The notes beneath the pieces were generated by a model that was given only the letters and a program-made list of their open reading frames with translations, did no database searches and was not told the origin of the DNA. Shown here piece after piece: positions 8,800 to 51,785 of a stretch of DNA of 64,000 nucleotides (position 1 is the first letter of the stretch; every line of letters begins with the position of its first letter). A program made the position numbers and the translations under genes. Source of the stretch: Actinomycetes bacterium (lineage in GTDB: Bacteria; Actinomycetota; Acidimicrobiia; Acidimicrobiales; Bog-793); NCBI GenBank assembly GCA_021797795.1, contig JAJZZB010000005.1:4514-68513 (forward strand), given 5' to 3'.

Positions 8800-8828
8800 C
8801 CTCCGCGCTCGGGACGGCAACGGCACCT

Positions 8829-17992: not shown

Positions 17993-19518
17993 CGCTCGTG
18001 CGCCATGTGATCGGCGGCGAGGAGGTCGATTCCCTCGGCGGCGGCCGCTTCGAGTCGGTCAACCCCTGGACCCGGCAGCCGTGGGCCGAGGTGGCCCTCG
18101 GCGAGCAGAAGGACGCCGAGCGGGCGGTGGAGGCGGCGCGGCGGGCCTTCGACGAGGGGCCATGGCCCCGCATGGGCAACGCCGAGCGGCGCGCCGTCCT
18201 GCACCGCTTGGCCGACCTCATCGTGGAGCACGCCGCTGAGCTCGCGCTCGCCGACACGAGCGACATGGGCAAGCCGATCAGCGACATGCTCGAGCGAGAC
18301 GTCCCCCGGGCAGCCCACAACTTCGGGTTCTTCGCCGACCACGCTGCCCTCTCGACCGGCGAGATCTTCCCCATGGACTCCGGCCATCACGCCTACGAGC
18401 AGTTCGACCCCGCCGGAGTCGTGGTCGCCATCTCACCGTGGAACTTCCCACTGATGCTCGAGAGCTGGAAGGTGGCTCCGGCGCTCGCCTGGGGCAACAC
18501 CGTCGTGCTGAAGCCGGCGGAGGAGTCGCCCGCCTCGGCCTCCCTGCTCGCCCGCCTCGGCCTCGAGGCCGGCCTCCCGCCCGGCGTGCTGAACGTCCTT
18601 CACGGCTTCGGTCCGAACGGAGCCGGCGAGGCCCTCACGACTCACCCGCAGGTGGACCGCGTGACCTTCACCGGAGAGTCGGCGACCGGTCGGGCCGTGG
18701 CTGCTGCCGCCGCCTCGCACCTCGCGCCGGTCAGCCTCGAGCTCGGCGGCAAGGGGGCGAGCATCGTCTTCGCCGACGCCGACCTCGATCATGCCGTCTC
18801 CTGGTCCGTAAGGGCGGCCTTCTCCAACGCCGGTCAGGTCTGTCTCGCAGGCAGTCGCCTCTTTGTCGAGGCCTCGGTGCGCGACGAATTCGTCGAACGG
18901 CTGGTCGCCGCCGCGGAGGCGCTCGTCCTCGGCGATCCGGGCGACCCCGGGACCAGCGTCGGTCCGCTCTCGTCCCAGCAGCAGCACGCCAAGGTCGTCG
19001 CGTATCTCGACGAGGTACCCCTCACCGGGGGCAAGGTGCTCACCGGGGGCAGGAGGGACGGTTGGTTTGTGGCCCCGACGGTCGTCACCGGCCTTGCTCC
19101 CGACGCCAGGGCCTGCCGGGAGGAGATCTTCGGCCCTATCGTCCCGGTCCTCTCCTTCGAGGACGAGGACGAAGCGGTACGACTGGCAAACGACTCGCCG
19201 TTCGGCTTAAATGCGATGTGCTTTACTACCAACCTAAGTAGGGGGCACAGAGTCGCACGACGGCTCCGTGCCGGCACGGTGTGGGTCAATTGCTTCTTCG
19301 TCCGGGATCTCCGTGCCCCCTTCGGCGGGGTCGGCGACTCGGGCGTGGGTCGGGAAGGAGGCAGATACAGCCGGGAGTTCTTCACCGAGCCGAAGGCGGT
19401 GGTCATGGAGATCGATCCGACGTCGTCCCGTCTCCCAGGGGGGGCACCGGCTCACGGGACGACGGGCCGCCGCACGGAGGAGAGGACAGCAGATTCTCAA
19501 CGAAGGGGAGTCAAATGA
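17989..19518 (+). CDS. NAD+-dependent aldehyde dehydrogenase, 2-hydroxymuconic-semialdehyde dehydrogenase-like
   Basis: ORF 17596..19518 trimmed to the GTG at 17989 (GTGA overlap). ALDH motifs: SPWNFPL, VVLKPAEESP, ELGGKGA, EEIFGP. About 30 extra C-terminal residues. Contains a rare-codon patch at 19207-19257. Confidence 0.75.
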   Translation: MTLVRHVIGGEEVDSLGGGRFESVNPWTRQPWAEVALGEQKDAERAVEAARRAFDEGPWPRMGNAERRAVLHRLADLIVEHAAELALADTSDMGKPISDMLERDVPRAAHNFGFFADHAALSTGEIFPMDSGHHAYEQFDPAGVVVAISPWNFPLMLESWKVAPALAWGNTVVLKPAEESPASASLLARLGLEAGLPPGVLNVLHGFGPNGAGEALTTHPQVDRVTFTGESATGRAVAAAAASHLAPVSLELGGKGASIVFADADLDHAVSWSVRAAFSNAGQVCLAGSRLFVEASVRDEFVERLVAAAEALVLGDPGDPGTSVGPLSSQQQHAKVVAYLDEVPLTGGKVLTGGRRDGWFVAPTVVTGLAPDARACREEIFGPIVPVLSFEDEDEAVRLANDSPFGLNAMCFTTNLSRGHRVARRLRAGTVWVNCFFVRDLRAPFGGVGDSGVGREGGRYSREFFTEPKAVVMEIDPTSSRLPGGAPAHGTTGRRTEERTADSQRRGVK

Positions 19519-20816
19519 GAGCGAAGAGATCAGCCGCGGTGGGCCTCGCGCTCGCCGCAGGAATCGGGCTGGCTGCCTGCGGCACGTCGAACGTCAGCAG
19601 CACCGGAACAGGCAGTAGCTCGGCCAAGGGGCCCATCGTCGAAGGTGCCGTCATTGCCTACACCGGCACCAACGCCTTCGAAGGCGGCGTCACCGACTCC
19701 GGGGTCTACCCGGCGATGTACGAGATCAACAAGGCGGGTGGCATCCTCGGTCACCAGCTCAACATCGAGACGGTGGACACCCGGGGCGACCCGGCGGACG
19801 CCCTGCCGGCTGCGCAGAAGCTGCTCGCCACGACGAGCAACCTCGTCGGGATCACCGGAGCCGGCACCACGTCGGGGCCGACGCTCATCCCGCTGTTCAA
19901 CTCGAACAAGATGGTCGTGATGAGCTCGGCCGGCGAGGCGAGGTACGACCGCAGCGCCTACCAGTACTTCTGGCGGCTCGTCCCGCCGGACCCGGCGAAC
20001 GGCGAGGCGATGGCCCTGTGGGCGCAGAAGCACGGCTTCACCCGGATCGCGGCGGTGTTCGGCACCGACAGCGGCTCCCAGGGTGACCTGCCCGGCGTTC
20101 TCCAGGGAATCTCCAAGATCCACGCCAAGCTCGTGGCCAACGTGTCGCTCACCCCTGACCAGCCGTCCTACCGGCCAGAGGTCGAGCAGGTGCTCGCCGC
20201 CCACCCACAGGTCATCATGACCGAGTCGGACGGAGCCACAGCTGCCACGTTCTTCGGTGAGATGAAGCAGCTCGGTCAGCTCGTGCCGATCTACGGGACG
20301 CAGGGGACCGTGACCAATAGCTGGCTGAACCCGGTGCGGGGCGCCATCGGCGCGAGCAACTTCCAGAAGTACTACACCGCCATCGTCGGTGGCACGCCGA
20401 AGCCGAGTCCGGCTCTCCAGGCCTTCGTCCAGGGTGTGAAGGCCGAGTCCTCCAAGGTTCCGTCCCCTGCCTCGCAGTGGTTCGGCAACCCCTACGCCCA
20501 GGCCTTCTACGACGGCGTCATCGTGCAGGCGCTTGCCATGCAGGCGGCGAAGAGCACGAGCCCATCCGTCTACAACAACTACATCATGAAGGTCACGGCG
20601 CCGGGTCCCGGCAAGGAGAAGGTCTACACCTTCGCCCAGGGCAAGGCCGCACTGGCTGCGGGCAAGCAGATCCAGTACATGGGTGCTTCGGGGCCGGTGC
20701 TGTTCGACAAGTACCACAACTCCTTCGGGAACGAGGCGGCTGAGAGTCTTTCGGCCAACGGGACCCCGACGGTGCTCGGAATCATCACAGAGCGAGCGAT
20801 CGAGAAGCTCGGCTAG
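19515..20816 (+). CDS. ABC transporter substrate-binding lipoprotein, LivJ/type-1 PBP family
   Basis: ORF 19281..20816 trimmed to the ATG at 19515 (ATGA overlap). Signal peptide with lipobox GLAAC, followed by a Liv-type periplasmic binding fold. Confidence 0.75.
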   Translation: MRAKRSAAVGLALAAGIGLAACGTSNVSSTGTGSSSAKGPIVEGAVIAYTGTNAFEGGVTDSGVYPAMYEINKAGGILGHQLNIETVDTRGDPADALPAAQKLLATTSNLVGITGAGTTSGPTLIPLFNSNKMVVMSSAGEARYDRSAYQYFWRLVPPDPANGEAMALWAQKHGFTRIAAVFGTDSGSQGDLPGVLQGISKIHAKLVANVSLTPDQPSYRPEVEQVLAAHPQVIMTESDGATAATFFGEMKQLGQLVPIYGTQGTVTNSWLNPVRGAIGASNFQKYYTAIVGGTPKPSPALQAFVQGVKAESSKVPSPASQWFGNPYAQAFYDGVIVQALAMQAAKSTSPSVYNNYIMKVTAPGPGKEKVYTFAQGKAALAAGKQIQYMGASGPVLFDKYHNSFGNEAAESLSANGTPTVLGIITERAIEKLG

Positions 20817-20888
20817 GTGTCCGGCCGGGGAGGCTCAGCCTCCCCGGCCGACCGCCTCGTGCCGGCAGTCCGCAGACACAGGAGCGAC

Positions 20889-21776
20889 ATGCATCTTTTC
20901 GTCCAGTCACTCGGGTTCGGGGTTGTGACGGCGTCCATCATCGCCATCGGCGCCATGGGTTTCACCCTCCAGTTCGGCCTCACCAACGTGCTCAACCTGA
21001 GCTTCGGCAGCCTCATGACGGTCGGGGGGTTCGTCGCCTACCTGGCCGAGTCCGCCGGCATCAACGTCTGGATCGGCCTTGTGCTCGGAGGCCTCGCCGG
21101 GGCTGCCAGCACGCTGATCATCGGCAAGACGATCTTCAAGGTCTACGCGCGCCGGGGCACCCGCCTGTTCGAGATGGTGATGGTGACCCTCGCCCTCGCC
21201 CTCATCATCGAGTACGCCGTCGACGCCATCTCTCGCGATCAGATCTATCAGCTGACCTTCCCCCAGGGGACGACCTTCAACGTCGGTGCCATCAGCATCA
21301 CCGCCGCCCAGCTGGCCATCGTCATCATCGGCATCGGGATCTTCATCGCTCTCGAGGTGATGCTCAAGATGACGCGTCTCGGCAAGGCGCTCCGGGCGAT
21401 GGCGGTCGACCCGAGCCTCGCCCGCTCGTGCGGGATCCCGACCGACCGCATCATCAACACGACCTGGCTCGTGAGCGGGTTCCTCTGCGGCGTGGCCGGC
21501 GTCGTGTTCGTCATCAATGCCCTGAGCGTCGACTCCTACACGGGAACCCTCTTCCTGCCGTCGGTCCTGGCGGCCGCCATCCTCGGAGGGGTGGGCTCGC
21601 CGGGGGGTGCGCTCGTGGCGTCCCTCGTGCTCGGTGTCGTCACCGAGCTCGTGGCGGCGGCGGGAGGGTCGGCCTACTCGACGGTGGCGGCCTTCGGTGT
21701 CCTCGTCGTGGTCCTGTTGAGTCGGCCGTCGGGAGTGCTCACGGCGGCTTCGCGGAAGGTCGAGCTGACCGTCTGA
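20889..21776 (+). CDS. branched-chain-amino-acid-type ABC permease (LivH-like)
   Basis: ORF 20817..21776 trimmed to the ATG at 20889 (MHLFVQSLGFGVV...). Multi-pass hydrophobic protein with a LivH-like N-terminus. Confidence 0.8.
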   Translation: MHLFVQSLGFGVVTASIIAIGAMGFTLQFGLTNVLNLSFGSLMTVGGFVAYLAESAGINVWIGLVLGGLAGAASTLIIGKTIFKVYARRGTRLFEMVMVTLALALIIEYAVDAISRDQIYQLTFPQGTTFNVGAISITAAQLAIVIIGIGIFIALEVMLKMTRLGKALRAMAVDPSLARSCGIPTDRIINTTWLVSGFLCGVAGVVFVINALSVDSYTGTLFLPSVLAAAILGGVGSPGGALVASLVLGVVTELVAAAGGSAYSTVAAFGVLVVVLLSRPSGVLTAASRKVELTV

Positions 21777-21810
21777 CGGCGCGGCCGTCGGCGGACCGGA
21801 AGGGACAACC

Positions 21811-22941
21811 TTGGGAGCTTTCACCTATTACATCTCGACGCTCGTCGTCTACTTCGGGATCGACCTGCTGTCGGCGTGGTCGCTCAACCTGCAGTACGGC
21901 TATGCGGGCGTCATCAACTTCTCGTTCATCATCTTCCAGGCGATCGGGGCATACATCGCCTCCACGGTGGTGCTGGGGCCGGACACCGGGATCAACGCCT
22001 ACCAGACCTACCTGTTCGGCGCGAACCTTCCCTGGCCGGTGCCGCTCATACTGGCCGCACTCGCCGGGGCGGCGCTCTCGGCGGTGATCGGCGTCTTCGC
22101 GCTGCGGCGCATCCGCAGGGACTACCAGGCGGCCGTCATGCTGATCGTCTCCCTGATCGCCCTCCAGGTGGTCTCGGCGGACGTCCACCTCTTCAACGGC
22201 TCGAACGGGCTTACCGGGATCCCGAAGCCGCTCGAGGGCGCGCTCAACGTGTCGCTCGCCAGCTACCAGTGGATCTACGCCGCCTTCGTTCTCGCGATCT
22301 GTGCCGTCGTCTACGTCATCGTCCAGAAGCTCTGCCGGTCCTCCTGGGGGCGCTCTCTGAGGGCGATTCGCGACCAGGAGGACGCGGCCATCTCCATCGG
22401 CCTCAACCCGACGCTGCTGCGCCTCGAGGTCTTCATCCTCGGCGGCGCCATCGCCGGCCTGAGCGGAGGACTCCTCGTCGAGTTCATCGGGGCATGGTCG
22501 CCCGGGGCATGGGGGTACGCGGAGACCTTCGTCATCTTCACCGCTGTCCTGGTGGGCGGTGTCGGCAACAACCGGGGCGTCATCCTCGGCATCTTCCTCG
22601 TGCCGATCCTCTTCCTCGAGCTGCCCCGCTTCCTGCCCGCCTTCGGGTACCCGGGGCTCATCGACGCCATCGAGTGGATGGTGATCGGTGCCCTCTGGAT
22701 GCTCGGGCTGCTCGTGCGCCCGCGCGGCCTCATCCCCGAGCGGCGGTTCGTCGCCGTCCGGGGCGGGTCGGGTGCGATCGCCTTCGACGGCGCCGCCCCG
22801 GGGTTCTTCGGACGGCTGCTCATGGTGGGCCGGGGAGACGGCGTGCCGATGCGCCGGCGTGCGGCGACCGTCGCGCAGCCGGCCCCTCCAGCCGACAAGG
22901 CGACGGCGGGCAGTGCCAGCGAGAGGACGGAGCTGTCATGA
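21811..22941 (+). CDS. branched-chain-amino-acid-type ABC permease (LivM-like)
   Basis: 376-aa ORF with a TTG start. Hydrophobic, LivM-like, with a C-terminal cytoplasmic extension. Confidence 0.75.
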   Translation: MGAFTYYISTLVVYFGIDLLSAWSLNLQYGYAGVINFSFIIFQAIGAYIASTVVLGPDTGINAYQTYLFGANLPWPVPLILAALAGAALSAVIGVFALRRIRRDYQAAVMLIVSLIALQVVSADVHLFNGSNGLTGIPKPLEGALNVSLASYQWIYAAFVLAICAVVYVIVQKLCRSSWGRSLRAIRDQEDAAISIGLNPTLLRLEVFILGGAIAGLSGGLLVEFIGAWSPGAWGYAETFVIFTAVLVGGVGNNRGVILGIFLVPILFLELPRFLPAFGYPGLIDAIEWMVIGALWMLGLLVRPRGLIPERRFVAVRGGSGAIAFDGAAPGFFGRLLMVGRGDGVPMRRRAATVAQPAPPADKATAGSASERTELS

Positions 22942-23747
22942 GCGTTCAGACCGAGGCCGGGCGGGGCGAGCTCGCAGCACGAGACAGCAACGGGGCGCCC
23001 GTCCTCGAGGCGGAGGACGTCTCGGTCCGCTACGGCGGGGTGATGGCCGTCACCCACGTGTCGCTGCAGGCCTACCGGGCGGAGACGCTCGGGCTCATCG
23101 GACCGAACGGAGCGGGCAAATCTTCACTCCTCGGTGCGCTCGGCGGCCAGCTCAAGGTGTCCGGGGGCTCCATCCGCCTGCACGGGCGCGACGTCACCCG
23201 TTCCCCTTCCTACGCCAGGGCACGGGGAGGCATCACCCGGACGTTCCAGACGACGAGCGAGTTTGAGGCCATGACCGTCTTCGAGAACCTCATGGTCTCA
23301 GCGCGCGGGGCGAAAGGTGCTTCCCTCGGCCACACCGTGCTCGCCTGGCGCTCCAACAAGGCGGAGGAGGCGGCCGCCCGGGCGCACGCCTGGGAGATCC
23401 TCGACCGCTTCGAGATGGCGGACACGGCCAGCGCGTACGGGCGCGAGCTGTCGGGTGGCCAGCGGCGCCTGGTGGAGATCATGAGGTGTCTCATGCGGCG
23501 CCCGGACGTCCTGCTGCTCGACGAACCCATGGTGGGCGTCGCACCGCATCTCGTGGCGCGCCTCGTCGCCGATCTCCGCCGGATCGCCGACGACGGCATC
23601 GCCCTCGTCATCGTGGAGCACGCGCTGGAGGTGGTGCGCGAGCTCTGCGACCGTGTCGTGGTCATGGCACAGGGGCGGGTGATCGCCGGGGGCACCTACG
23701 ACGAGGTCGTGCGAGACGAGGAGGTGCGACGTGCCTACATCGGCTGA
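22938..23747 (+). CDS. ABC transporter ATP-binding protein (LivG-like)
   Basis: ORF 21876..23747 trimmed to the ATG at 22938 (ATGA overlap). Walker A GPNGAGKSS, signature LSGGQRR, Walker B LLLDEP. Confidence 0.85.
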   Translation: MSVQTEAGRGELAARDSNGAPVLEAEDVSVRYGGVMAVTHVSLQAYRAETLGLIGPNGAGKSSLLGALGGQLKVSGGSIRLHGRDVTRSPSYARARGGITRTFQTTSEFEAMTVFENLMVSARGAKGASLGHTVLAWRSNKAEEAAARAHAWEILDRFEMADTASAYGRELSGGQRRLVEIMRCLMRRPDVLLLDEPMVGVAPHLVARLVADLRRIADDGIALVIVEHALEVVRELCDRVVVMAQGRVIAGGTYDEVVRDEEVRRAYIG

Positions 23748-24504
23748 GACCGCGGACGGGACGGCATCGCAGCGCTGCGAGCCCTACCTCCGCGGCGATC
23801 ACATGACGAGCGGATACAACAAGGTGCCCGTCGTGCGGGACGTCTCGGTCCAGGTCGGTATCGGCGAGATCGTGCTGGTCATGGGCCCGAACGGCGCCGG
23901 CAAGAGCACCCTTGTGAAGACGGTGACCGGCAAGCTTCCGCTCATGTCCGGCCGCATCATCTTCGCCGGTGAGGACATATCGAGCATGCGCGAGGAGACC
24001 CGCGCTGCACGCGGCGTCGGCTACGTGCCCCAGAGCGGCGACGTCTTCCCGACTCTCACGGTGACCGAGAACCTCGAGATGGGCGGGTACCGGATGAAGC
24101 CGAAGGAGGTCCGCGACCGGATCGAGGAGATCTTCGCGCTCTTCCCGACGCTGCGGGAGCTGAGGCGACGCCACGCCCGGACGCTGTCGGGAGGTGAGCG
24201 CAAGACGCTCGGGATCTGCAGGGCGCTCGTCTCCACGCCGACGCTGCTCATCCTCGACGAGCCGACGGCGAATCTCGCGCCGCTCATCGCCTCGAGCGTC
24301 CTGCACCAGGTCGTGGAGTCGCTCGCCGGAGCGGGGACGGCGCTGCTCTTGATCGAGCAGCGGGTGAGCCTCGGCCTCGAGGTGGCCACGTGGGGATACG
24401 TGCTCACCGACGGGAAGCTCCGGCTCAGCTCGAGCGCCGACGAGCTGAGGGCGATGGGAGACCTGAGCAGCCTCTTCCTCAACGCGCCGTTGGAGGTGGC
24501 CTGA
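23731..24504 (+). CDS. ABC transporter ATP-binding protein (LivF-like)
   Basis: GTG at 23731 is 7 nt after GAGGAGG, a 17-nt overlap with the LivG-like gene. Walker A GPNGAGKST, signature LSGGERK, Walker B LILDEP. Confidence 0.85.
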   Translation: MPTSAETADGTASQRCEPYLRGDHMTSGYNKVPVVRDVSVQVGIGEIVLVMGPNGAGKSTLVKTVTGKLPLMSGRIIFAGEDISSMREETRAARGVGYVPQSGDVFPTLTVTENLEMGGYRMKPKEVRDRIEEIFALFPTLRELRRRHARTLSGGERKTLGICRALVSTPTLLILDEPTANLAPLIASSVLHQVVESLAGAGTALLLIEQRVSLGLEVATWGYVLTDGKLRLSSSADELRAMGDLSSLFLNAPLEVA

Positions 24505-33693: not shown

Positions 33694-35469
33694 GTGAGCA
33701 TGTTCGGCCCAGACTGGTCCACCTCTCCCCGGGAGTACGAGGTGACAGTCGAGCGGGACGTGACTGTCCCGGGCAGCGACGGGGTGGAGCTTGTCGGTGA
33801 CCTCTTTCGGCCGACGACCGACCAGCCCGTGCCGGTCATCGCAGGTTTCCACCCGTACAACAACGAGTTCCAGACCGCCCCGATCACCCCTGAGGGCTTC
33901 AGCCTCCAGAGGGGATGGATGGAGTCGGGCGATCCCCACTTCTTCGCCCGCCGCGGCTACGCCCATCTCGTCGCCAACGTCCGCGGCACGGGGAAGTCGG
34001 GTGGCACCTACCAGGCGATGGGCCCGAAGGAGTCGCTCGACGTGGCAGCGGCCATCGAGTGGCTGGCGCGCCAGCCGTTCTCGAGCGGAGCTGTCGGGCT
34101 GTTCGGGATCTCCTACTTCTCGTGGCTGCACCTGCAGACGGCGATGCACCATCCGCCGGCGCTGAAGGCGGTCTTCGCCCCGTTCGGGGCGACGGACTTC
34201 TACCGCGACTTCCTCTATCACGGTGGCATCCTCTCCTACCGGTTCCTCCTCGGGTGGAAGGACAAGCTGGACGGCGTCCGCTACGACAGTTGGCACCGCC
34301 AGCGCCTCGGCGCCGACGGCTTCGAGCAGGCGATCTCACAGGCCCTCGCCGACGAGGAGATCGCTGCCGTCCCGGAGCTCGTCTCCTGCCTGCGGACGCC
34401 CACCGGCGCCGACGCCCTCGTCGCCGACGTCGTCCTCGCCTCACTCGACGGTCAGTTCTGGCAGGAGCGGAGCGTGGACTACTCCCGGACCTCCGTCCCC
34501 GTCTACCTCGGGGCCTGCTGGGGGCTCGATGGCCTCCATCTCCCTGCAGCCTTCAGGAGCTATCTCGCGTGGAGCGGTCCGGCACGCCTGATGGTCGGCC
34601 CCGACGTCTACCTCGATCGACCGCTCTACCAGCTGCAGCACGAGGCCGTGCGCTTCTTCGACCAGTATCTGAAGGGGAACGACACCGGGCGGTCGAAGGA
34701 TCCGCCCATCGAGCTGTTCGTCTCGAGAACCGGAAGGTGGAAGAGGACGACCGCCTGGCCGCTCCCCGAGACCCGGTTCACGCCGTTCCATCTCCATGCG
34801 GCAGGGTTGCTGAGCGAACGCGAGCCGGCACCGGCTCCGTCACAGGCGGCCTACGAGGACTCCCCCTTTCTCCACGGTGAGCTCCGCTTCTCGACACCCA
34901 CGCTCGTCGAGGAGACCGAGCTCGTCGGACCGGCGGTGCTCAACCTGTACTGCTCGAGCAGCGACGACGATGCTCTCGTGTTCGCCTCGTTACACGCCGT
35001 CGGCGGAGACGGGGTCGCCCGGGAGCTGGCGCGCAGCTGGCTGCGCGCCTCCCAGCGGGAGAAGGATCCCTCCTCGCCGCCATACGCCCCCCGCCAACTG
35101 CACGAGCGCCGCCAGCCGCTCGCGAGGGACCAGGTTGTCCTTCTCGAGATCGGCTTCAGCGGGATGGCGGTCAGGTTGCGGCCGGGCGAGCGTCTCATGC
35201 TCCGCCTCACGAGCTCCGACGACGAGCCGCCGCCGGACCCGCTTCGCGCCACCGGATGCGGTCATGTGAGCCGCCAGCGGGCCTCGGTGGTGACGGTCCA
35301 CCACGACGCGAGGTACCCCTCCTCGCTCGTCCTCCCCGTCACGGAGGGCAACCTGCTCGGGACCTTCCTCTCGGGAGGCGTGCTGCCCGGAAGGACGGGG
35401 CCCATCCCGACGGCGAAGATCAAGCGGCTGAAGACGGCTGCCGCGCCGGACGGCACCTCGACGAGCTGA
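33694..35469 (+). CDS. CocE/NonD-family (S15) alpha/beta hydrolase
   Basis: 591-aa ORF (GTG at 33694; alternative ATG at 33700). VRGTGKSGG, GISYFSW nucleophile elbow and a long C-terminal beta-domain. Confidence 0.65.
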   Translation: MSMFGPDWSTSPREYEVTVERDVTVPGSDGVELVGDLFRPTTDQPVPVIAGFHPYNNEFQTAPITPEGFSLQRGWMESGDPHFFARRGYAHLVANVRGTGKSGGTYQAMGPKESLDVAAAIEWLARQPFSSGAVGLFGISYFSWLHLQTAMHHPPALKAVFAPFGATDFYRDFLYHGGILSYRFLLGWKDKLDGVRYDSWHRQRLGADGFEQAISQALADEEIAAVPELVSCLRTPTGADALVADVVLASLDGQFWQERSVDYSRTSVPVYLGACWGLDGLHLPAAFRSYLAWSGPARLMVGPDVYLDRPLYQLQHEAVRFFDQYLKGNDTGRSKDPPIELFVSRTGRWKRTTAWPLPETRFTPFHLHAAGLLSEREPAPAPSQAAYEDSPFLHGELRFSTPTLVEETELVGPAVLNLYCSSSDDDALVFASLHAVGGDGVARELARSWLRASQREKDPSSPPYAPRQLHERRQPLARDQVVLLEIGFSGMAVRLRPGERLMLRLTSSDDEPPPDPLRATGCGHVSRQRASVVTVHHDARYPSSLVLPVTEGNLLGTFLSGGVLPGRTGPIPTAKIKRLKTAAAPDGTSTS

Positions 35470-35537: not shown

Positions 35538-36308
35538 ATGAGCAGCCAAGCAGGCAGACCGGTGGTGCTCGTCACCGGAGCATCCCGCGGCATCGGGCGG
35601 AGCGCCGCCCTCACTTTCGCCCGCCACGGCCTCGACGTCGCGCTCAATTTCTCGAGGAGCGAGCCGGAGGCCCAGACGGTGGCGAAGGAGGTTGCCGCGC
35701 TCGGCGGGCGGGCCGAGCTCTACCGGGCCGACGTGGCCGATGACCGCGCCGTCCGGGCCATGCTCGAGAGGATCGGCTCCGACTTCGGCAGGCTCGACGT
35801 CCTGATCGACAACGCCGGCACAACGATCGACACCCCGCCATCGGACCTCGAAGGCCTGGACCTCGACGCGTGGGACCGCGTCTTCGCCGTGAACGTCCGA
35901 GGTCTGTTCTCGGTCGCCCGGGCGTGCGTGCCGTGGCTGCGTGCATCTCCGGTCGCCTCGATCGTCACGACCTGCAGCGTCGCCGGCCTGCGTCCGGGTC
36001 CCCAACCCCTTCCCTACGCCGCCAGCAAGGCGGCCGTGGCGAACCTCACCCACACGCTTGCGGGTGCCCTGGCGCCGGAGATCCGCGTGAACGGCGTGGC
36101 GCCCGGCTGGATGGTCGGCGAGTGGATGGAGCACCAGCTCGGGGAGCACTACGACCGCCTGATAGAGCGGCGGGCGAGGATGACCCCCCTGAAGCGGGTG
36201 GCCACCCCCGACGACGTTGCCGAGGCGATGGTGCCGCTCGCACTCTCGAACCGATTCGTGACCGGCCAGATCCTCGTCGTTGACGGCGGCTTCACTTCGG
36301 TCACCTGA
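35538..36308 (+). CDS. SDR-family oxidoreductase (3-hydroxyacyl-CoA / 3-oxoacyl reductase-like)
   Basis: 256-aa ORF. TGASRGIG, NNAG, YAASKAA and a classical SDR C-terminus. Confidence 0.8.
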   Translation: MSSQAGRPVVLVTGASRGIGRSAALTFARHGLDVALNFSRSEPEAQTVAKEVAALGGRAELYRADVADDRAVRAMLERIGSDFGRLDVLIDNAGTTIDTPPSDLEGLDLDAWDRVFAVNVRGLFSVARACVPWLRASPVASIVTTCSVAGLRPGPQPLPYAASKAAVANLTHTLAGALAPEIRVNGVAPGWMVGEWMEHQLGEHYDRLIERRARMTPLKRVATPDDVAEAMVPLALSNRFVTGQILVVDGGFTSVT

Positions 36309-36361: not shown

Positions 36362-38014
36362 ATGTTGCTCGAAGGAGTCACACCCTTTCCGGCCACCGAC
36401 GCACAGCGCTTCGTCGAGAAGGGGTACTGGGAGGAGCGCCCGCTGATCGACGGGTTCCGTGAGGTGTTCAGCCGGAACGCCGAGCGGGTCGCTCTCGTCG
36501 ACGACCACGAGCAGGTGACCTACCGAGAGCTCGACGAGCGTTCCAGCCTGCTGGCGCGCCACCTGCTCGATCTCGGCTTCCAGCCCCTCGACCGGATCGT
36601 GGTCCAGCTGCCGAACACGGTCATGTTCGCCTACCTGTACTTCGCGATGCAGAAGATCGGCGCCATCCCGATCCTGGCCCTCCCCGTGCACCGTCGCCGC
36701 GAGGTGAGCCAGTTCGTGGAGATCGCCGGGGCGAGGGCGTGCGCTGTCCCCGCCTTTGCCCGGGGCTTCGACTTCCGCCAGATGGTCCGAGAGCTCATGG
36801 GCGCCCATGAGAGCCTCGAGCTCTGCCTGGTCCAGGGCGCAGATCCTGACGAGGGCGCAGACGGCTTCATCTCGCTCGAGTCGCTGCTCGTGGGCGAGCC
36901 GAGGACGCCGGAGTCGGCGCTCGACGAGGTGGTCATCGACCCCTACGACCCGGCCGTCTTCCTCCTCTCGGGCGGCACGACGGGGATCCCGAAGCTGATC
37001 CCGCGCAGCCACAACGACTACCTCTACAACTCCAAGCTGGCCGGGTCCGTCACCGACATCCGTGACGGCGACGTGCTGCTGCTCGTGCTGCCGATCGAGC
37101 ACAACCTGCCGCTCGCCTGTCCGGGGATGCAGGGCTTCCTCCTCAAAGGGGCGACCGCGGTCCTCTCGACCTCGACCCGGCCCGAGGACGTCTTCCGGCT
37201 CGTCGAGACCCACCGGGCCACCCACATCCACGTCGTGCCTGCGCTGCTCATCCGTTGGATCAACGACCCGGCGGTTGCCGCGTACGACCTCTCCTCGATC
37301 CGCGTCATCCAGTCGGGCGGTCAGCGCCTCCAGCCCGAGACTCGCCACAAGGCGGAGTCGCTGCTCCCCAATCTGTTCATCCAGGAGAACTTCGGCATGG
37401 CGGAGGGTCTCATCATGTTCGTCCGCTCCGACGACCCCGAGGTCGTCCGACGGGAGACCTGCGGCCGGCCGATCTGTCCCGACGACGAGGTCCTGCTCGT
37501 CGACGAGGACGGCGCCGTCGTGCCCGAGGGCGAGGTCGGGGAGCTCCTCGTCCGGGGCCCCTGCACCCTGCGGGGCTACTTCCGGGCGCCGGAGTACAAC
37601 CAGAGGGCCTTCACGCCGGACGGCTTCTACCGTTCCGGCGACCTGCTGAGGCTGCATCCGTCGGGCAACTACGTCGTCGAGGGTCGGCGGAAGGACCTCA
37701 TCAACCGGGGCGGCGAGAAGATCAGCGCCGAAGAGGTCGAGAACCTGATTCTCGCCCACCCGAGCGTGCTGAACGTCGCCTGCGTCCCCTGGCCCGACGA
37801 GCTCCTCGGAGAACGCATGTGCGCCTGCGCCGTGCTGAAGCCCGGAGCGAGGCTCTCCCTGGAGGAGCTTGTGTCGTTCCTCACGGACTTCGAGATCGCG
37901 AAGTTCAAGCTGCCCGAGCGTCTCGAGATCATGGCCTCGCTCCCCCTTTCGGGGTTCGGGAAGGTCTCGAAGAAGGACCTCGCCGCCTCCCTCGCGAGGA
38001 GGCCCGGTGGCTGA
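36362..38014 (+). CDS. DhbE/EntE-type aryl-acid adenylating enzyme / aryl-CoA ligase, paralog 2
   Basis: 550-aa ORF. LLSGGTTGIPKLIPRSHNDY, EHNLPLACPG, FGMAEGLI, PSGNYVVEGRRKDLINRGGEKISAEEVE, GKVSKK. Confidence 0.8.
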   Translation: MLLEGVTPFPATDAQRFVEKGYWEERPLIDGFREVFSRNAERVALVDDHEQVTYRELDERSSLLARHLLDLGFQPLDRIVVQLPNTVMFAYLYFAMQKIGAIPILALPVHRRREVSQFVEIAGARACAVPAFARGFDFRQMVRELMGAHESLELCLVQGADPDEGADGFISLESLLVGEPRTPESALDEVVIDPYDPAVFLLSGGTTGIPKLIPRSHNDYLYNSKLAGSVTDIRDGDVLLLVLPIEHNLPLACPGMQGFLLKGATAVLSTSTRPEDVFRLVETHRATHIHVVPALLIRWINDPAVAAYDLSSIRVIQSGGQRLQPETRHKAESLLPNLFIQENFGMAEGLIMFVRSDDPEVVRRETCGRPICPDDEVLLVDEDGAVVPEGEVGELLVRGPCTLRGYFRAPEYNQRAFTPDGFYRSGDLLRLHPSGNYVVEGRRKDLINRGGEKISAEEVENLILAHPSVLNVACVPWPDELLGERMCACAVLKPGARLSLEELVSFLTDFEIAKFKLPERLEIMASLPLSGFGKVSKKDLAASLARRPGG

Positions 38015-38780
38015 GGCGGGAGCGACCCGCAGGATCACGGTCGAACGCCACAGCGGCTTCGCCGTCGTCGTCCTCGACGATCCGGGGCGTCGCAACGCGC
38101 TCTCGCTCGAGATGTCGTCCGATCTCACCGAGGCGGTGTCGGCGCTCGAGGAGTCGGGCGAGGTGTGCGCCTTCATCGTCACCGGAGCGCCGCCGGCGTT
38201 CTGCGCCGGCGCCGATCTCGGACAGCTCGGCTCGGCCGACGAGGACCGTCTCCGCGCGATCTATGCGGGCTTCGAGCGGGTCGTGCGCTCGCCGCTGCTG
38301 ACCGTCGCCGCTGTGAACGGGGCGGCGGTCGGGGCCGGCATCAATCTGGCGCTCGCCTGCGACGTGCGGCTCGCCGCCGAGAGCGCCCGCTTCGACACCC
38401 GCTTTCTCGCCCTCGGCCTGCATCCCGGTGGCGGCCACAGCTGGATGCTCGAGCGCGCCCTCACCTATCCGGGAGCCGTGGCCATGCTGTTCGGGGGCGA
38501 GGCGATCCCGGGCGCGGAGGCCGAGCGGATCGGGCTGGCGCACCGCTGCGTCCCAGACGACGAGCTGCTCGAGACGGCCGAGGCGTTCGTCGCCACCGCC
38601 GCGGCGGCACCGCGCGAACTGGTGGCGCGCATGAAGGCCACCCTCTCCCTCGCCCGCCGGTCCTCCTACGACGAGGCCCTCGGGCACGAGGTGACCGAGC
38701 AGCTCTGGTCGACCGGCCAGCCGGCCTTCGCCGAACGGCTGGCCATGCTTCGCTCCAGAATCTCGTCGTCAGGTCGCTGA
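38007..38780 (+). CDS. enoyl-CoA hydratase/isomerase (crotonase) family protein
   Basis: ORF 37869..38780 trimmed to the GTG at 38007, an 8-nt overlap with ligase 2. RRNALS, FCAGADL, AAVNGAAVGAGINLALACD. Confidence 0.8.
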   Translation: MAEAGATRRITVERHSGFAVVVLDDPGRRNALSLEMSSDLTEAVSALEESGEVCAFIVTGAPPAFCAGADLGQLGSADEDRLRAIYAGFERVVRSPLLTVAAVNGAAVGAGINLALACDVRLAAESARFDTRFLALGLHPGGGHSWMLERALTYPGAVAMLFGGEAIPGAEAERIGLAHRCVPDDELLETAEAFVATAAAAPRELVARMKATLSLARRSSYDEALGHEVTEQLWSTGQPAFAERLAMLRSRISSSGR

Positions 38781-39667
38781 TGCCCATCTCCTACCTGTCC
38801 ATCGTGAACGAGATCACAGCACCCCTCCCGCCCATGCCGGTCGCCCGACTCGGCCCTCCACCGCTCGTCCCGCTGGCCGTCCCGCTCGAGGAGGCGACGG
38901 TCCTCATCGCGAGCAGCGTCGGCGTGCACCTGCGCTCTGATCCGCCCTTCGCATCCGTCGACGACCTCAGCTGCCGGCGTCTCGCACAGGACGTCGATCC
39001 CTCGGAAGTCCGGCCGTCTCACCCGAGCCCGATCCGCCGTCCCGGCCGTCAGGACGTGAACGTCGTGCATCCCTACCAGCGCCTCGCTGAGCTCGCCGAG
39101 CAGAAGGTGATCGGGAGCCCGAGCCCTTTCCACCTCTCCATGCTCGGGGCGATCAAGCAGTTGACCCGGATCGTCACCGAACTCGGTCCCGCCGTCGTCT
39201 CGGCGGCCGGCGACGCGGGCGCCGACCTCGTCCTCGTGGTACCGCTCTGTCCTGCCTGCCACCAGGCGATGGGATTGCTCGCCCGCGTCGTCGAGCGAGG
39301 CGGCGTTCCGACGGTCTCGGTCACCGGCGCGCGGGACGTGACCGAGATGGTCCGGCCTCCCCGGGCTGCGTACCTCAACTACCCGCTCGGCTACAGCCTC
39401 GGGAGGCCGGGAGACGCCGCCGAGCAGCGGGTGATCGTGAGAGACGTGCTCGAGCTCGCCGAGGCGGACCTGCAGCCCGGCGCGATCGTTGACCTCGACC
39501 ACGCCTGGCCGGACCCTGGTTGGGAGGGGCAGGTTCTCGACCGTTACCGGAAGGAGGCCGACACGGTGCGCAGCCAACGGGAGAAGGAGTTCGGCCCCGA
39601 CGGTCGCCATCTCGCGCTCGAGGAGGTGGCCGCTGTGGAGCAGATGGCCGCCGACGGGCTGCTCTGA
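38780..39667 (+). CDS. glycine/sarcosine/betaine/D-proline reductase component-B-like (GrdB/PrdB family) protein, Cys-type, function unknown
   Basis: ORF 38165..39667 trimmed to the ATG at 38780 (1-nt TGATG overlap with the crotonase gene). Block order as I recall for this family: VGVHLRSDPPF, SHPSP...DVNVVHPYQRLAEL..KVIGS, HLSMLGA, DLVLVVPLCPACH (CxxC; Cys157 is TGT), GVPTVSVTG, RPPRAAYLNYPLGYSLGRP. Not verified by HMM. Confidence 0.55.
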   Translation: MPISYLSIVNEITAPLPPMPVARLGPPPLVPLAVPLEEATVLIASSVGVHLRSDPPFASVDDLSCRRLAQDVDPSEVRPSHPSPIRRPGRQDVNVVHPYQRLAELAEQKVIGSPSPFHLSMLGAIKQLTRIVTELGPAVVSAAGDAGADLVLVVPLCPACHQAMGLLARVVERGGVPTVSVTGARDVTEMVRPPRAAYLNYPLGYSLGRPGDAAEQRVIVRDVLELAEADLQPGAIVDLDHAWPDPGWEGQVLDRYRKEADTVRSQREKEFGPDGRHLALEEVAAVEQMAADGLL

Positions 39668-39670
39668 GCC

Positions 39671-40189
39671 GTGGCGGTGTACGCCCTCGGGAAGCTCACT
39701 CCCGAGATCGCCCCCACGGCCTTTGTCCATCCCGACGCGGTCGTCATCGGTGCGGTGCGGCTCGGTCCTCACGCGAGCGTCTGGCCGGCGGCCGTGCTGC
39801 GAGGCGACTACGGCGAGATCACTGTCGGCGAGGCCACCTCCATCCAGGACGGCTCCGTGCTGCACACCCACCACGACGCACCGACGGTGCTCGGTCGGGG
39901 CTGCATCGTCGGACACCTCGCGTACCTCGAAGGTTGTGTCGTCGAGGACGACTGCCTCATCGGCGCGGGCGCCCTCGTGCTGCGCGATGCCTCGATCGGG
40001 GCAGGGGCCACGGTGGCGGCCGGAGCACTGGTCCAGGAGCGGGCGGTGGTGCCGCCCGCCCACCTCGCCGCAGGCGTACCGGCCCGCGTCACCGCAGGCG
40101 GATGGAGTATCGAGGCGATCCGTCGTGGCGCCGCCGTCTACGTGGAGAACTCGCGTCGCTTCGTCGCCGAGCTTCGCAGGATCGATTGA
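39671..40189 (+). CDS. gamma-carbonic-anhydrase-like / PaaY-like left-handed beta-helix protein
   Basis: 172-aa ORF with a GTG start 3 nt after the previous stop. Hexapeptide repeats and VWPAAVLRGDYGEITVGEATSIQDGSVLH..GHLAYLEGC. Confidence 0.75.
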   Translation: MAVYALGKLTPEIAPTAFVHPDAVVIGAVRLGPHASVWPAAVLRGDYGEITVGEATSIQDGSVLHTHHDAPTVLGRGCIVGHLAYLEGCVVEDDCLIGAGALVLRDASIGAGATVAAGALVQERAVVPPAHLAAGVPARVTAGGWSIEAIRRGAAVYVENSRRFVAELRRID

Positions 40190-40264: not shown

Positions 40265-41158
40265 TCAGGCGGTCTGGACTCGCTTCCGGTTGCGGGTGGA
40301 GACGACGCTGACCCTTTTGGCCACGGCCCGTCGCTCGCCGGCGACGTCGCGGCTCAAGGCGGCGAGCTGCTCGAGGCCGGGGCCGTAACAGGCCTCGAGC
40401 TGCTCCCCGAAGTCCTGGGAGATCTGCTGGACGTACATGTCGTGGCGGATGTAGCCCTTCACGGCTGCCGCGAGGAGAGCGTCGTCGGCGTAGAGAGCCT
40501 GCCAGTCACGACCTCCCGGCGCGAGGGCCCAGAGGACCCTCGTGCTGTCGGCTACGACGGCGAGGTGGCGGGCCTGGTGGTGGCGGTACACGACGCCGTC
40601 GGTCGTCACATGGCGGATGCTTCGTCCGTGCTCGATGGAGAACTCTTCCTTGCCGAAGTGCAGGGTGTCGGTGGCCACCCCTCGTTCGTCGGCGCGGGCG
40701 ACCGACTCGAGGAACGCCGTGGTGTCGCAATTGATCGACATGTACACGTGCCGGTCAGCGGTGTCGAGCAACTCGATCGCCCGGCGCTCGATCGCCGGCC
40801 AGTCAGACAACGCCTCGAACGCCCGTACCTGCTGGCCGGGGTCCCCGGCCTCACGCATGAGACTCACCTCGGCGTCGGCGAGCCGGCGGCGGAAGCTCGT
40901 GTCCAGCTGGGTGAGAACCTGGGTCGGCGGGACCGCCACGAAGCGGAGCGGCTCTCCCTCGATGGCGATCGCCACCCCCTTGCGTGCCAGCCGCCGCAGG
41001 GTCTCGTACACCTTCGGCTGCGGGATCCCCGTCTCGTTCGCCAGGGCGTAGCCGGTCATCGGCGGGTTCCCGAGCAGGCCGATGTACGCCCTTGCCTCGT
41101 ACTGGGAGAAGCCGAGTTCGACAAGGCGCTCCACCGTTCCCGAACCGGTCTCCGCCAT
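40265..41158 (-). CDS. TrmB-family transcriptional regulator
   Basis: ORF 40265..41164. I prefer the ATG at 41158, 5 nt after AGGGAG. N-terminal TrmB HTH: LVELGFSQYEARAYIGLLGNPPMTGYALANETGIPQPKVYETLRRL. Confidence 0.7.
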   Translation of the reverse strand: MAETGSGTVERLVELGFSQYEARAYIGLLGNPPMTGYALANETGIPQPKVYETLRRLARKGVAIAIEGEPLRFVAVPPTQVLTQLDTSFRRRLADAEVSLMREAGDPGQQVRAFEALSDWPAIERRAIELLDTADRHVYMSINCDTTAFLESVARADERGVATDTLHFGKEEFSIEHGRSIRHVTTDGVVYRHHQARHLAVVADSTRVLWALAPGGRDWQALYADDALLAAAVKGYIRHDMYVQQISQDFGEQLEACYGPGLEQLAALSRDVAGERRAVAKRVSVVSTRNRKRVQTA

Positions 41159-41227
41159 GCTCACTCCCTACGGTAGAAAGAAGGACGAGGCCACTCTACC
41201 GGCAGCCCGCCTGGGTGAGGCGGCTGC

Positions 41228-42070
41228 TCACAGGCCGAGGACCGCCTCGGCGTTCTCGTGGAAGACGGCGTGCATCACTTCATCGCCGAAGCCGAGTTCG
41301 TCCCACTCTCTGAGGATCCGCTCGTAGGTCATCGAAGGGTGGTCGCTGCCGAACATGATCTTGCTCCGCAACCGGGCCCGGATGTCGGTGCGCAGACTCG
41401 GCGGGAAGTATTTCGGCGCCCAGCCCGACAACTCCCAGTACACGTTGCCCTTGTGGAGGGCCACGGCCGTCATCTCGTCGATCCACGGCCATCCCGGGTG
41501 GGCAGCGATGATCGTGAGATCCGGGAAGCGGGCCGCAAGACGGTCGATGGCTGCTGGGTGAGCGTGCCGGAGAATGGCCCCCATGCCGCCCGGCGTGCCA
41601 GCGCCCATCCCGGTGGTGCCCACGTCGACCATGACCGGAACCCTGAGTCCCGTGATGGTCTCGAACAGCGGGCTCAGCTCCTCGTCGTCGACTGAGTAGT
41701 GGCCCATTATCGGGTGGAAGTGGAAGCCGAGGGCCCGGTACTCTCGGACCGCCTGCTCCGCCTCCTTGATGGCGACGTCGCCCTTCAGGGGATCGACCGT
41801 GGCCCATGCCTGGATGAAGGTGTCCTGGTAGCGGTCCCTGAGATCGGCCACGTAGCTGTTCGAGCACGGGGGAGCTCCGCTGAGCGACTCGATGTCGAAG
41901 GCGACGAGCACGGCCTCGACCCCGACCCTTCGGATATCGGCCACCACGTCGGTCTCGCTCCGGGCGACCCACGGCTTCGACCAGTAGTCCTCGAGAGCGG
42001 CGACGTAGGGACCCTGCGAGGCCAGCCAGACGTCGGTACCGGGATAGCAGTGGAGGTCGATGCGTCTCAT
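41228..42070 (-). CDS. amidohydrolase-2 family metal-dependent hydrolase
   Basis: 280-aa ORF. RIDLHCYP at the N-terminus, HFHP, AAHPGWPW, MFGSDHP. Confidence 0.65.
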   Translation of the reverse strand: MRRIDLHCYPGTDVWLASQGPYVAALEDYWSKPWVARSETDVVADIRRVGVEAVLVAFDIESLSGAPPCSNSYVADLRDRYQDTFIQAWATVDPLKGDVAIKEAEQAVREYRALGFHFHPIMGHYSVDDEELSPLFETITGLRVPVMVDVGTTGMGAGTPGGMGAILRHAHPAAIDRLAARFPDLTIIAAHPGWPWIDEMTAVALHKGNVYWELSGWAPKYFPPSLRTDIRARLRSKIMFGSDHPSMTYERILREWDELGFGDEVMHAVFHENAEAVLGL

Positions 42071-44757: not shown

Positions 44758-45247
44758 GACTGGGCCGCGAGCCGCCCGTTGAGGAGGCCAGCCGGGATGC
44801 TCTGGTTGTGTCGTTCCATGACCGTTCGCGGGCCCAGATAGCGTCACCCGGCCAGCAGAGATCGCTCCCGCTCCCGCTGAGACGGCGCGATCAGGTTCGA
44901 CCGGGTGCAAAGACCGGGCGGGCGGTGAACGCCTCATGATGGGCGGTATCGGCCGCTGAGCTGCTGCACCTCGAGCCGCGCCTTGCCACGCGAGCGAAGC
45001 CGGGATTCGATGACGAGCGATGGGAGCCCTCCGGACATGAAGCTCTCCCCGGTGGGCGCTTGGTCACTACCGCCCGCGCTCGGTGGGACCGGGGCGCGGG
45101 TGACCGGCCGTGGCCTGCGGCCGTCGCCTCTCGGTGGCCTGACAGGGCCGGAGGCCGGGCGCCGGTCCGACCGGCATGCAGCTGGTGCCCGGTTCGATCG
45201 GAGTGTTCCAGCTGTGGGACCAACGACGAGGCATAGCCTGCCTGGCG

Positions 45248-46390: not shown

Positions 46391-46990
46391 GAGGTGTCCG
46401 GGGCGGCAGAGGCGCGGACGGCGCGCCTTCGGCCGGACGTGCGCCGGCCGCCGGATGCTCCTCGTGCCACCGGGATGGACACGACCTCGCCGCCCTCAAG
46501 GTTGAGCAGCGCCCGCGGGCGTGGCGCGCGATCTCGTCCGCGAAGTCCGACAGGGCTCTTCTCACGAGGCGGACGGCGCCATCGGGATGGGCACACAGGC
46601 GCCACGCGGTGCTCGACGGCTACGAAGAGCTGGGCGAGCGCTGCGACCAGATGGCGCTCTCGACGCCCGTCGGGCTCGACCTCGACGGCGATGGCCGGAG
46701 CCCGAGGGCGCAGGGGTCGCACTGCGCGCCGGAACGCGGGCTCGGTATCTCGCCACCCCGCCCGCCTCTGCCAGTCCGCAGGCGTCCTCCGGCGGAAGCG
46801 GTGGCGCCGAGGTACGGATCGAGGTTCCCGGCACCCTCGCCCCGTCCCTGGTGGAGGGAGCCGGCGCCAGCACGGGCGAGGCGAAATCACCCGACCGGGC
46901 CGGCCGGCCGGCGCCAGGCCGGCGCGAACCGGCTGTCGCCCGTCGGATCCCCCGGCAAAGAGGGCGGCGAGGCTTCGATACCCTTTGGCC

Positions 46991-51306: not shown

Positions 51307-51785
51307 GCTCGCGGTAGGCGGTGCGCGCCCTTGGAGGGTGCGTGCCGCTTGGCTCAACCCCGTGCCGATGTCCCGCTTGGCCGGTGGGCCGGTCCGCCCG
51401 CTCGGCACCCGCGCCGTAGGTCGGCTGGAGGCCGCCTGGCGTATCGCAGTGTGGCAGCCCGAGGGACTGCCGTCGTCCACCCGACAGGTCGGGAGGTGCT
51501 GCGGTAGCTGGCCGGCTCTGTGGCGCGAGGCGGCGGATCCCGATCCGGTCGGGACAACGACCTCACCTCCGGCCTCGGCATCACGCGGTCACGCCGGATC
51601 CAACGTGCTGTTCCATGCCACCATGGGCAATGTCGCCGTGCTCGACGACGCGTGGTCGAGCACGGGCTCGGAGCGGTCGGGAGGGCGCTCCGGCAGATGC
51701 ACAAAGTGGCTCGACGCCCGGGACCGCCTGCAGGCAGGGCCATCAGACGCGACGCCGTGAGAGGTGCGGAGGAAGAAGGGGAAGC

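Follow-up and report, generated by a model that had tools for sequence, protein, structure and literature searches.

A gene cluster encoding a Cys-type PrdB-like protein

We analysed a 64,000-nt stretch of DNA, referred to below as the window (Actinomycetes bacterium, Bog-793; assembly GCA_021797795.1, contig JAJZZB010000005.1; G+C content ~70%), which encodes a 295-residue relative of PrdB, the 26-kDa selenocysteine (Sec) subunit of clostridial D-proline reductase. The gene is the third of four open reading frames (ORFs) on the forward strand; it is preceded by genes for an aryl-acid ligase (ligase 2) and a crotonase-fold protein, and followed by a gene for a left-handed beta-helix (LbH) protein (Table 1). 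The G+C content at third codon positions ranges from 0.83 to 0.92 among the four ORFs, and all four are therefore taken to be coding. The tight packing reported in a preliminary description of this DNA is present as described: the GTG start codon of the crotonase gene at 38007, which is preceded by the Shine-Dalgarno sequence GAGGAGG, overlaps the ligase gene by 8 nt (stop codon at 38012-38014), the crotonase and PrdB-like genes share 1 nt at 38780 (cTGATG), and a gap of 3 nt separates the PrdB-like gene from the GTG start codon of the LbH gene. The LbH start is ambiguous, because an independent gene call uses a second in-frame GTG at 39677. All six sequence blocks that had been listed for the 295-residue product were found in it. 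Within L-C-P-A-C-H, Cys157 is encoded by TGT (39248-39250) and Cys160 by TGC (39257-39259).

Table 1. Features of the PrdB-like locus and of associated genes in the window
Feature	Positions	Strand	Basis or remark
PrdB-like protein, Cys-type, 295 aa	38780..39667	+	TIGR04483 E=1.7e-30; hhalign vs P0202
C157-P-A-C160 redox motif (TGT CCT GCC TGC)	39248..39259	+	Cys157 at selenocysteine position
Ligase 2, salicylate-type aryl-acid adenylating / CoA ligase (DhbE family), predicted	36362..38014	+	Pfam AMP-binding
Crotonase-fold protein, non-canonical	38007..38780	+	Pfam ECH_1, E=3e-44
Left-handed beta-helix (LbH) protein, gamma-carbonic anhydrase / PaaY / CaiE group	39671..40189	+	Pfam Hexapep
SDR1, short-chain dehydrogenase/reductase	35538..36308	+	Pfam adh_short_C2, E=1e-54
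TrmB-family transcriptional regulator	40265..41164	-	Pfam TrmB, E=2e-20
Amidohydro_2 (PF04909) metal-dependent hydrolase/decarboxylase-family enzyme	41228..42070	-	Pfam, E=1.8e-38
CocE/NonD (S15) family hydrolase	33694..35469	+	Pfam Peptidase_S15 + PepX_C; TIGR00976 242 bits, above cut-off
Liv-type ABC importer: Peripla_BP_6 binding protein, two permeases, ATPase	19242..24504	+	Pfam

Relationship to PrdB and GrdB

The NCBIfam profile of PrdB (TIGR04483) aligned to residues 26-232 of the 295-residue protein along profile positions 17-223 of 238, with a score of 106 bits that does not reach the equivalog cut-off of 300. The GrdH profile gave a weak match (E=3.6e-4, residues 91-221 on profile positions 282-410), as did the GrdF profile. 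Among the 2566 relatives recovered by a library-wide profile search, P0202 (241 aa) qualifies with 453 bits as a true PrdB equivalog, and comparison of the ortholog alignment to P0202 with hhalign gave a probability of 99.7% (E=3e-25, 228 columns, 26% identity), with VPLCPACHQ placed on ..C..CH., PPR on.PR, and C157-P-A-C160 on the CxxC of PrdB. No match to the Pfam family GRDB (PF07355) was found in the 295-residue protein (E<=0.1) or in any of 47 orthologs (E<=10). Despite this missing match, the NCBIfam and hhalign results establish the homology to the PrdB/GrdB family that the preliminary description had proposed; the Pfam search that it suggested came out negative, and the Pfam model appears to be too narrow for PrdB-like proteins. 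Judged by these alignments, the protein is a stand-alone, Cys-type member of the selenoprotein B (PrdB/GrdB) superfamily, homologous to the whole of PrdB and carrying a C-terminal extension of about 50 residues.

An AlphaFold2 model of the protein has a pLDDT (predicted local distance difference test) of 95.3, with no Foldseek match in the PDB at E<=1e-3, and a PDB sequence search with the ortholog profile returned a single spurious match, at 0.08. Across the superfamily, D92, P98, E172, P194, R195, G204 and G208 are near-invariant, a pattern that fits an enzyme, and the invariant Arg195, Asp92 and Glu172 hint that a site for binding an acid group has been conserved. Cys160 is kept in 78% of superfamily representatives.

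Comparison with the characterised systems shows both likeness and difference. PrdB has the U/C-x-x-C-H motif at the corresponding site and agrees with the window protein in the PPR/PR motif and further core residues, and both families exist in Sec and Cys forms. Unlike PrdB, the window protein carries the C-terminal extension, has no pyruvoyl partner PrdA and no PrdC-F, and is found in aerobic-type soil lineages with a module comprising an aryl-acid ligase, a short-chain dehydrogenase/reductase (SDR) and an Amidohydro_2 enzyme. The similarity to GrdB, GrdF and GrdH is weak but specific, and lies in their C-terminal half, including the Sec-motif region; compared with the two-domain GrdB (~435 residues), the window protein lacks the N-terminal half, and its locus lacks the GrdA, GrdC and GrdE genes of GrdB systems.

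These differences bear on whether the protein could truly belong, as a subunit, to a reductase of D-proline, glycine, sarcosine or betaine. PrdB is its top NCBIfam match, and the JGI pipeline labels its relatives 'D-proline reductase (dithiol) PrdB', but the score is less than half of the equivalog cut-off. Moreover, its hosts belong to the Actinomycetota and Dormibacterota of soil, where it is encoded amid genes of aromatic-acid catabolism. None of PrdA, PrdC-F, GrdE, GrdA and GrdC was found among the annotated genes, in the window at ~7.7-53 kb or in five annotated ortholog loci (L082-L086). We consider this assignment already contradicted and exceedingly improbable: D-proline or glycine reductase is excluded by the missing PrdA, GrdE, GrdA and GrdC, the sub-threshold score and the unfitting ecology.

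Two variants among the superfamily members were also observed. P0143 (495 aa) fuses an XRE/RstR-type helix-turn-helix domain to a PrdB-like domain with C-P-V-C, so that PrdB-like domains may serve a regulator in some lineages. A neighbouring subfamily (P0121, P0124, P0125, P0128 and P0149) has C-P-[QMA]-C together with a C-terminal C-x-C (…IRCNC, …IRCAC, …KCNC), which may be a second redox or metal site.

Selenocysteine at the position of Cys157

A scan of 185,579 species genomes for PrdB-like loci identified 80 loci, of which 40 have TGA, in frame, as the codon that aligns with Cys157, with protein similarity continuing past the TGA. Four of these are orthologs with 49-55% identity and the motif U-P-A-C (L038-L041); the other 36 are more distant (within L045-L080), with U-P-V-C in 30 and U-P-L-D, which lacks the second Cys, in six. 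In all 40 Sec loci a hairpin begins 11 nt past the TGA (A[C/U]CAG[U/A]C[C/G]-GUN-GG[A/U/G]CUG[G/A]U). Its 8-bp stem is paired in 97.6% of cells (36 distinct sequences), with compensatory changes at two pairs (UA 19 and CG 15 at one; UA 27, AU 4 and UG 5 at the other), and its covariation score was reached by none of 500 shuffles. The position and form of the hairpin match those that we take to characterise the bacterial selenocysteine insertion sequence (SECIS) element. The Cys-type genes, including that of the window, have lost it.

Many database relatives are fragments of 156-158 residues that stop exactly before residue 157, or that start just after it, as expected of gene callers that stop at UGA. 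The 40 Sec genes themselves are unannotated, and gene callers cut them into pieces of about 156 and 130 residues.

The TGA codons in 40 related loci and the covarying SECIS-like hairpin identify Cys157, by alignment, as the residue at the Sec site; Cys160 is taken as the resolving cysteine of the U/C-x-x-C centre. The equivalence of Cys157 to Sec had been anticipated in the preliminary description, which had called for a search for Sec-containing orthologs and a check of CxxC conservation; such orthologs exist, with the SECIS-like hairpin, and PLCPACH is invariant in 47 orthologs. In a neighbour-joining tree, an all-Sec outgroup and a basal ortholog branch mixing Sec and Cys stand outside an all-Cys main clade that includes the window protein. 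On this distance tree, Sec was probably ancestral and replaced by Cys at least twice.

The TGT codon of Cys157 had been highlighted as disfavoured and as one substitution from TGA. TGT is indeed the minor Cys codon locally (12 TGT vs. 65 TGC in 17 genes), but TGC is likewise one step from TGA, and the codon use of Cys-type orthologs at site 157 (26 TGC, 13 TGT) is no different from that at site 160 (30 TGC, 9 TGT). We therefore rejected TGT157 both as the mark of a recent TGA to TGT change and as a signal of any kind.

Stand-alone proteins of this kind were described by Zhang and Gladyshev from the Sargasso Sea (2005) and from Global Ocean Sampling (GOS; 2008) as the 'Proline reductase PrdB' UxxC family, for which Cys homologs exist (PMC1088965, PMC2398784). 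The distant U-P-V-C Sec loci (33-41% identity to the window protein) match this marine family in a comparison of descriptions only. The window protein, unlike the marine family, belongs to a separate, mostly Cys-type clade with C-P-A-C from metagenome-assembled genomes (MAGs) of soil, and its clade has a conserved operon context that the distant Sec homologs lack.

Conservation of the gene neighbourhood

Close homologs of the PrdB-like protein (124 proteins, at least 53% identity), which carry the names 'hypothetical protein' or 'PrdB' in their sources, come solely from metagenomes or MAGs (Actinomycetes, Acidimicrobiales, Dormibacterota), and the hosts of the main all-Cys clade are soil Actinomycetota, Acidimicrobiia and Dormibacterota MAGs. 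We surveyed the gene neighbourhoods with tblastn using the window proteins and by unsupervised clustering of neighbouring ORFs, and in the five loci L082-L086 by gene calls with Pfam labels; partners were counted in the 34 main-clade loci whose flanking sequence amounts to 8 kb or more.

The most frequent partner is an SDR like SDR1 of the window, in 24 of the 34 loci, followed by the ligase (23), the Amidohydro_2 enzyme like that of the window and a Liv-type ATP-binding cassette (ABC) ATPase (21 each), the TrmB regulator (18) and a second Amidohydro_2 enzyme (12). At least one of SDR, ligase and Amidohydro_2 is present in 29 of the 34 loci. A xanthine-dehydrogenase-family molybdenum enzyme, a CocE/NonD hydrolase and malate synthase occur in seven of the 34 loci each, a benzoylformate-decarboxylase-like thiamine pyrophosphate enzyme in six, and the crotonase in five by clustering and about 10 by tblastn; ABC binding-protein and permease genes are present in 8-9 ortholog loci, and the CocE/NonD hydrolase in 7-8. 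Near the PrdB-like gene, the SDR1 orthologs are 52-86% identical and the Amidohydro_2 orthologs 69-92% identical. The main-clade loci span three phyla and their gene order is shuffled; since the order differs between phyla, we argue that the co-occurrence itself is under selection.

In the main clade, the PrdB-like gene thus shows conserved co-occurrence with genes for an aryl-acid ligase, an SDR, an Amidohydro_2 enzyme, a TrmB regulator and an ABC importer, from which we infer a shared function of these genes as a conserved catabolic module. The gene context in the preliminary description accordingly needs revision: the linkage to a salicylate-type ligase recurs, but the crotonase accompanies a minority of loci, and the LbH gene, cast there as encoding a 'safety-valve' thioesterase, adjoins the PrdB-like gene only in the window and in its 87%-identical relative (L001/L081), which does not support a conserved role of this kind. 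The most constant partners (SDR, Amidohydro_2, TrmB and ABC importer) had not been mentioned. Family similarity, CxxC conservation and recurrent gene linkage, the three points on whose absence its proposal was to fall, were all found. Among the 36 distant Sec homologs there is no conserved partner (crotonase at 6 loci, ADP-forming acyl-CoA synthetase at 5, acyl-CoA dehydrogenase at 4).

The position of the TrmB gene raises the question of a regulatory or sensor role, in which the PrdB-like domain would bind a pathway ligand or sense redox state and thereby modulate TrmB. The TrmB gene lies directly upstream on the same strand in L020, L026, L028, L032 and L033, and in L083, the sixth such locus examined, its stop codon overlaps the start of the PrdB-like gene by 4 nt; the fusion in P0143 likewise couples a PrdB-like domain to a helix-turn-helix domain. 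However, TrmB stands apart from the PrdB-like gene or on the opposite strand in many loci, including the window, no TrmB gene neighbours the Sec homologs or the members of the basal clade, and the dense invariant polar residues and Sec usage point to catalysis. We regard a sensor role as quite improbable.

Further neighbours were noted in other loci. In Dormibacterota loci (L082, 10910-13962), the PrdB-like gene is separated from the TrmB/Amidohydro_2/SDR/ligase block by genes for an aldehyde dehydrogenase and for malate synthase A (732 bits, which exceeds the cut-off), and this hints at glyoxylate or an aldehyde as a pathway product. Beside a basal-clade Cys homolog (L086, 1578-5239) we observed a set of BKACE, 3-hydroxyacyl-CoA dehydrogenase, SDR, cupin and cyclase genes, which presumably resembles the phloroglucinol degradation pathway; a transposase gene separates the PrdB-like gene from its other neighbours there.

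Ligase 2 and the other partner proteins

The nearest solved relatives of ligase 2 are salicylate-AMP and 2,3-dihydroxybenzoate-AMP ligases (484-419 bits, the best being 5wm2 with 484 bits), and its score against TIGR02275 (483 bits) is below the cut-off. Alignment to DhbE (1md9), the CahJ-type enzyme 5wm2 and PchD (7tyb) gave, in DhbE numbering, the pocket residues N235, L236, C240, N329, G331 and I337. Within the sequence HNLPLAC, Cys240 is the salicylate-type replacement of Ser240, and Asn in place of Val329 is unusual; the roles of the DhbE pocket residues are those that we take to follow from May et al. 2002. The signature HN[L/M]PLAC...QENFGM is present in 23 of 25 ligases near a PrdB-like gene (those of L016 and L019 differ), with variation limited to L or M at position 236 and I or L at 337. 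Fold, Asn235 and Cys240 together mark ligase 2 as a predicted salicylate-type, aryl-acid adenylating enzyme of the DhbE family, as the preliminary description had supposed, and the shared pocket suggests that a single ortho-hydroxy acid is recognised, which may carry more substituents or be heteroaromatic.

The crotonase-fold protein scored 263 bits against PRK05870 (cut-off 285). In comparison with Mycobacterium tuberculosis EchA8 both catalytic Glu residues are replaced, one by Asn113 and the other by Phe133, with Asp130 nearby, and the protein is not a canonical enoyl-CoA hydratase and probably not a hydratase at all. The LbH protein matched the NCBIfam profiles of gamma-carbonic anhydrase (125 bits), PaaY (121 bits) and CaiE (100 bits), all below cut-off. 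NCBIfam and PDB searches returned no name for the conserved Amidohydro_2 enzymes or the TrmB protein; the window's Amidohydro_2 enzyme has no named NCBIfam match, and its sole solved relative is uncharacterised. The molybdenum enzyme of some loci is a generic member of the xanthine-dehydrogenase family, with glyceraldehyde dehydrogenase as its best, sub-threshold match, and was not recognisable as a 4-hydroxybenzoyl-CoA reductase.

These properties bear on the pathway first proposed for the four-gene cluster, in which the PrdB-like protein would reduce an ortho-substituted benzoyl-CoA made by ligase 2 (by deamination, dehalogenation or dehydroxylation), the crotonase would process the product, and the LbH protein would be a CoA-rescuing thioesterase. 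The salicylate-type pocket (Asn235, Cys240) of a ligase that is a conserved partner, the tight packing of the four genes in the window and the about equal likeness of the LbH protein to PaaY and to gamma-carbonic anhydrase are all consistent with it. It is nevertheless unlikely: the crotonase is present in a minority of loci and lacks both catalytic Glu residues, the LbH gene is confined to the window and one close relative, the more constant SDR and Amidohydro_2 enzymes are left without a role, and the carbon attacked in PrdB/GrdB chemistry is not aromatic but sp3-hybridised and alpha to a carbonyl.

Proposed function

The best explanation of these observations, in which our confidence is about even, is a dithiol-driven reductive cleavage step in an aryl-acid catabolic module. 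An ortho-hydroxy (hetero)aromatic acid would be imported and then activated by the ligase; in some genomes it would first be made by a CocE-type esterase, or by the benzoylformate-decarboxylase-like enzyme together with the molybdenum oxidoreductase. The SDR and the Amidohydro_2 enzyme would process the ring, and the PrdB-like protein, needing no cofactor, would reductively cleave a carbon-heteroatom bond beside an activated carbonyl in a two-electron reaction. In this step the Cys157 thiolate would attack and Cys160 would resolve the adduct, yielding a Cys157-Cys160 disulfide to be re-reduced by a thioredoxin- or mycoredoxin-type system. We infer this chemistry by analogy with PrdB and GrdB (Kabisch et al. 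1999, as cited in PMC1088965; review PMC13188914). Given the putative acid-group site at Arg195, Asp92 and Glu172, either a CoA ester or a free acid could be the substrate.

A functional analogy, and no closer relationship, may be drawn to the beta-etherase system of LigD (an SDR), LigE,F and LigG, and to PcpC, which would share the proposed chemical logic. In that logic an SDR makes or preserves a carbonyl, the alpha substituent is displaced by a thiolate, and another thiol then frees the product while a disulfide forms. LigE,F/LigG and PcpC differ in being glutathione transferases that use free glutathione, and have no sequence relationship to the window protein.

A more specific version of the proposal is possible though doubtful. 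Here the protein would be the founding example of a PrdA-independent, cofactor-free reductase, in aerobic soil bacteria, that works with Cys157 and Cys160 alone (Sec and Cys in relatives). Once the SDR and the Amidohydro_2 enzyme had processed the ring of a 2-carboxylic acid, salicylate-like or N-heteroaromatic and activated with CoA, it would reductively cleave a C-N or C-O bond in the position alpha to the carbonyl. If true, this would give the very abundant PrdB-like UxxC selenoproteins of aerobic habitats, so far orphans, their first biochemical function.

Several observations weigh against reductive cleavage in such a module, or against parts of it. In some full-length superfamily members position 157 is neither Cys nor Sec, and therefore not all members are redox enzymes. 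The basal, partly Sec branch and the distant Sec homologs are not accompanied by the ligase/SDR/Amidohydro_2 module, which may thus represent one recruitment and not the general role of the family. No thioredoxin or thioredoxin reductase gene is present in the module. The reaction of a DhbE-type enzyme may end with the acyl-adenylate, or the acyl group may go to a carrier protein and not to CoA. Arg195, invariant in the superfamily, would be no less suited to binding a free carboxylate than a thioester. Finally, the orthologs are known from MAGs and metagenomes alone.

The cysteines might instead act without net electron transfer, with Cys157 (Sec in relatives) as a covalent nucleophile in an isomerisation or lyase reaction, for example the cis-trans isomerisation of a ring-cleavage product as in thiol-dependent maleylpyruvate isomerases. 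This would accord with the gentisate-type genes of the window (a cupin dioxygenase at 7690-8799 and an FAA hydrolase at 8974-9969), with the lack of a reductant-regenerating gene in the module and with the six U-P-L-D Sec homologs, by which a resolving Cys is not universally needed. Non-redox catalysis is improbable, however, in view of the invariance of Cys160 in the ortholog clade and its retention in most superfamily representatives, the characterised relatives, which are reductases, and the U/CxxC motif and Sec usage, which are typical of redox centres (PMC1088965, Table 3).

Other genes of the window

The window is an aromatic catabolic island, which also holds two UbiD decarboxylases, a Rieske oxygenase, a LigB-like protein and three aryl/acyl ligases. 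An upstream thiolase resembles 3-oxoadipyl-CoA thiolase and, together with the crotonase neighbour, fits a CoA-ester route. A second DhbE-type ligase (28976-30634) is ~55% identical to ligase 2 and has the pocket HNFPLAS...QEVFGM, without the shared signature; downstream of it lie genes for an Amidohydro_2 enzyme, a class II aldolase/decarboxylase-like protein and a 3-oxoadipyl-CoA-thiolase-like protein, and this group may form a parallel aryl-acid branch. Region 7690-12024 encodes, besides the gentisate-type cupin dioxygenase and the FAA-family hydrolase, a UbiD-family decarboxylase that is extended at its N-terminus by ~200 residues, and region 49720-53444 contains another UbiD gene followed by the third AMP-ligase. 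At 45176-48886, a class-V aminotransferase-like gene is directly followed by a gene for an 830-residue protein of the alanyl-tRNA-synthetase family, which may be other than the housekeeping enzyme because its Pfam match begins only at residue 205.

Implications for the PrdB-like family

PrdB-like UxxC proteins are among the most abundant selenoprotein families of oxic seawater (PMC1088965, PMC2398784), ranking third in the Sargasso Sea, with 235 Sec and 110 Cys sequences in GOS. Stand-alone PrdB homologs have been catalogued since 2005 with no function beyond the inherited name, and the statement in the preliminary description that they have no assigned function agrees with the selenoproteome literature (PMC1088965, PMC2398784, PMC13188914). 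We found no functional study of stand-alone PrdB homologs in the literature, nor any description of the Cys-type clade, its Sec orthologs or the ligase/SDR/Amidohydro_2/TrmB module, and the operon link of the PrdB-like protein appears to be undescribed.

The label 'proline reductase' rests on homology alone and is carried by proteins of aerobic habitats, where Stickland fermentation is unexpected. The Cys-type clade can be expressed without Sec machinery, and its fixed partner enzymes, with a dedicated ligase pocket that can be screened for its acid, make an old annotation gap tractable. If the proposed chemistry is true, it would add thiol-driven reductive bond cleavage to the aerobic catabolism of aromatic and heteroaromatic acids and would explain the use of selenocysteine by the relatives. 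The clade thus offers a testable handle on a large family of unassigned function outside clostridia.

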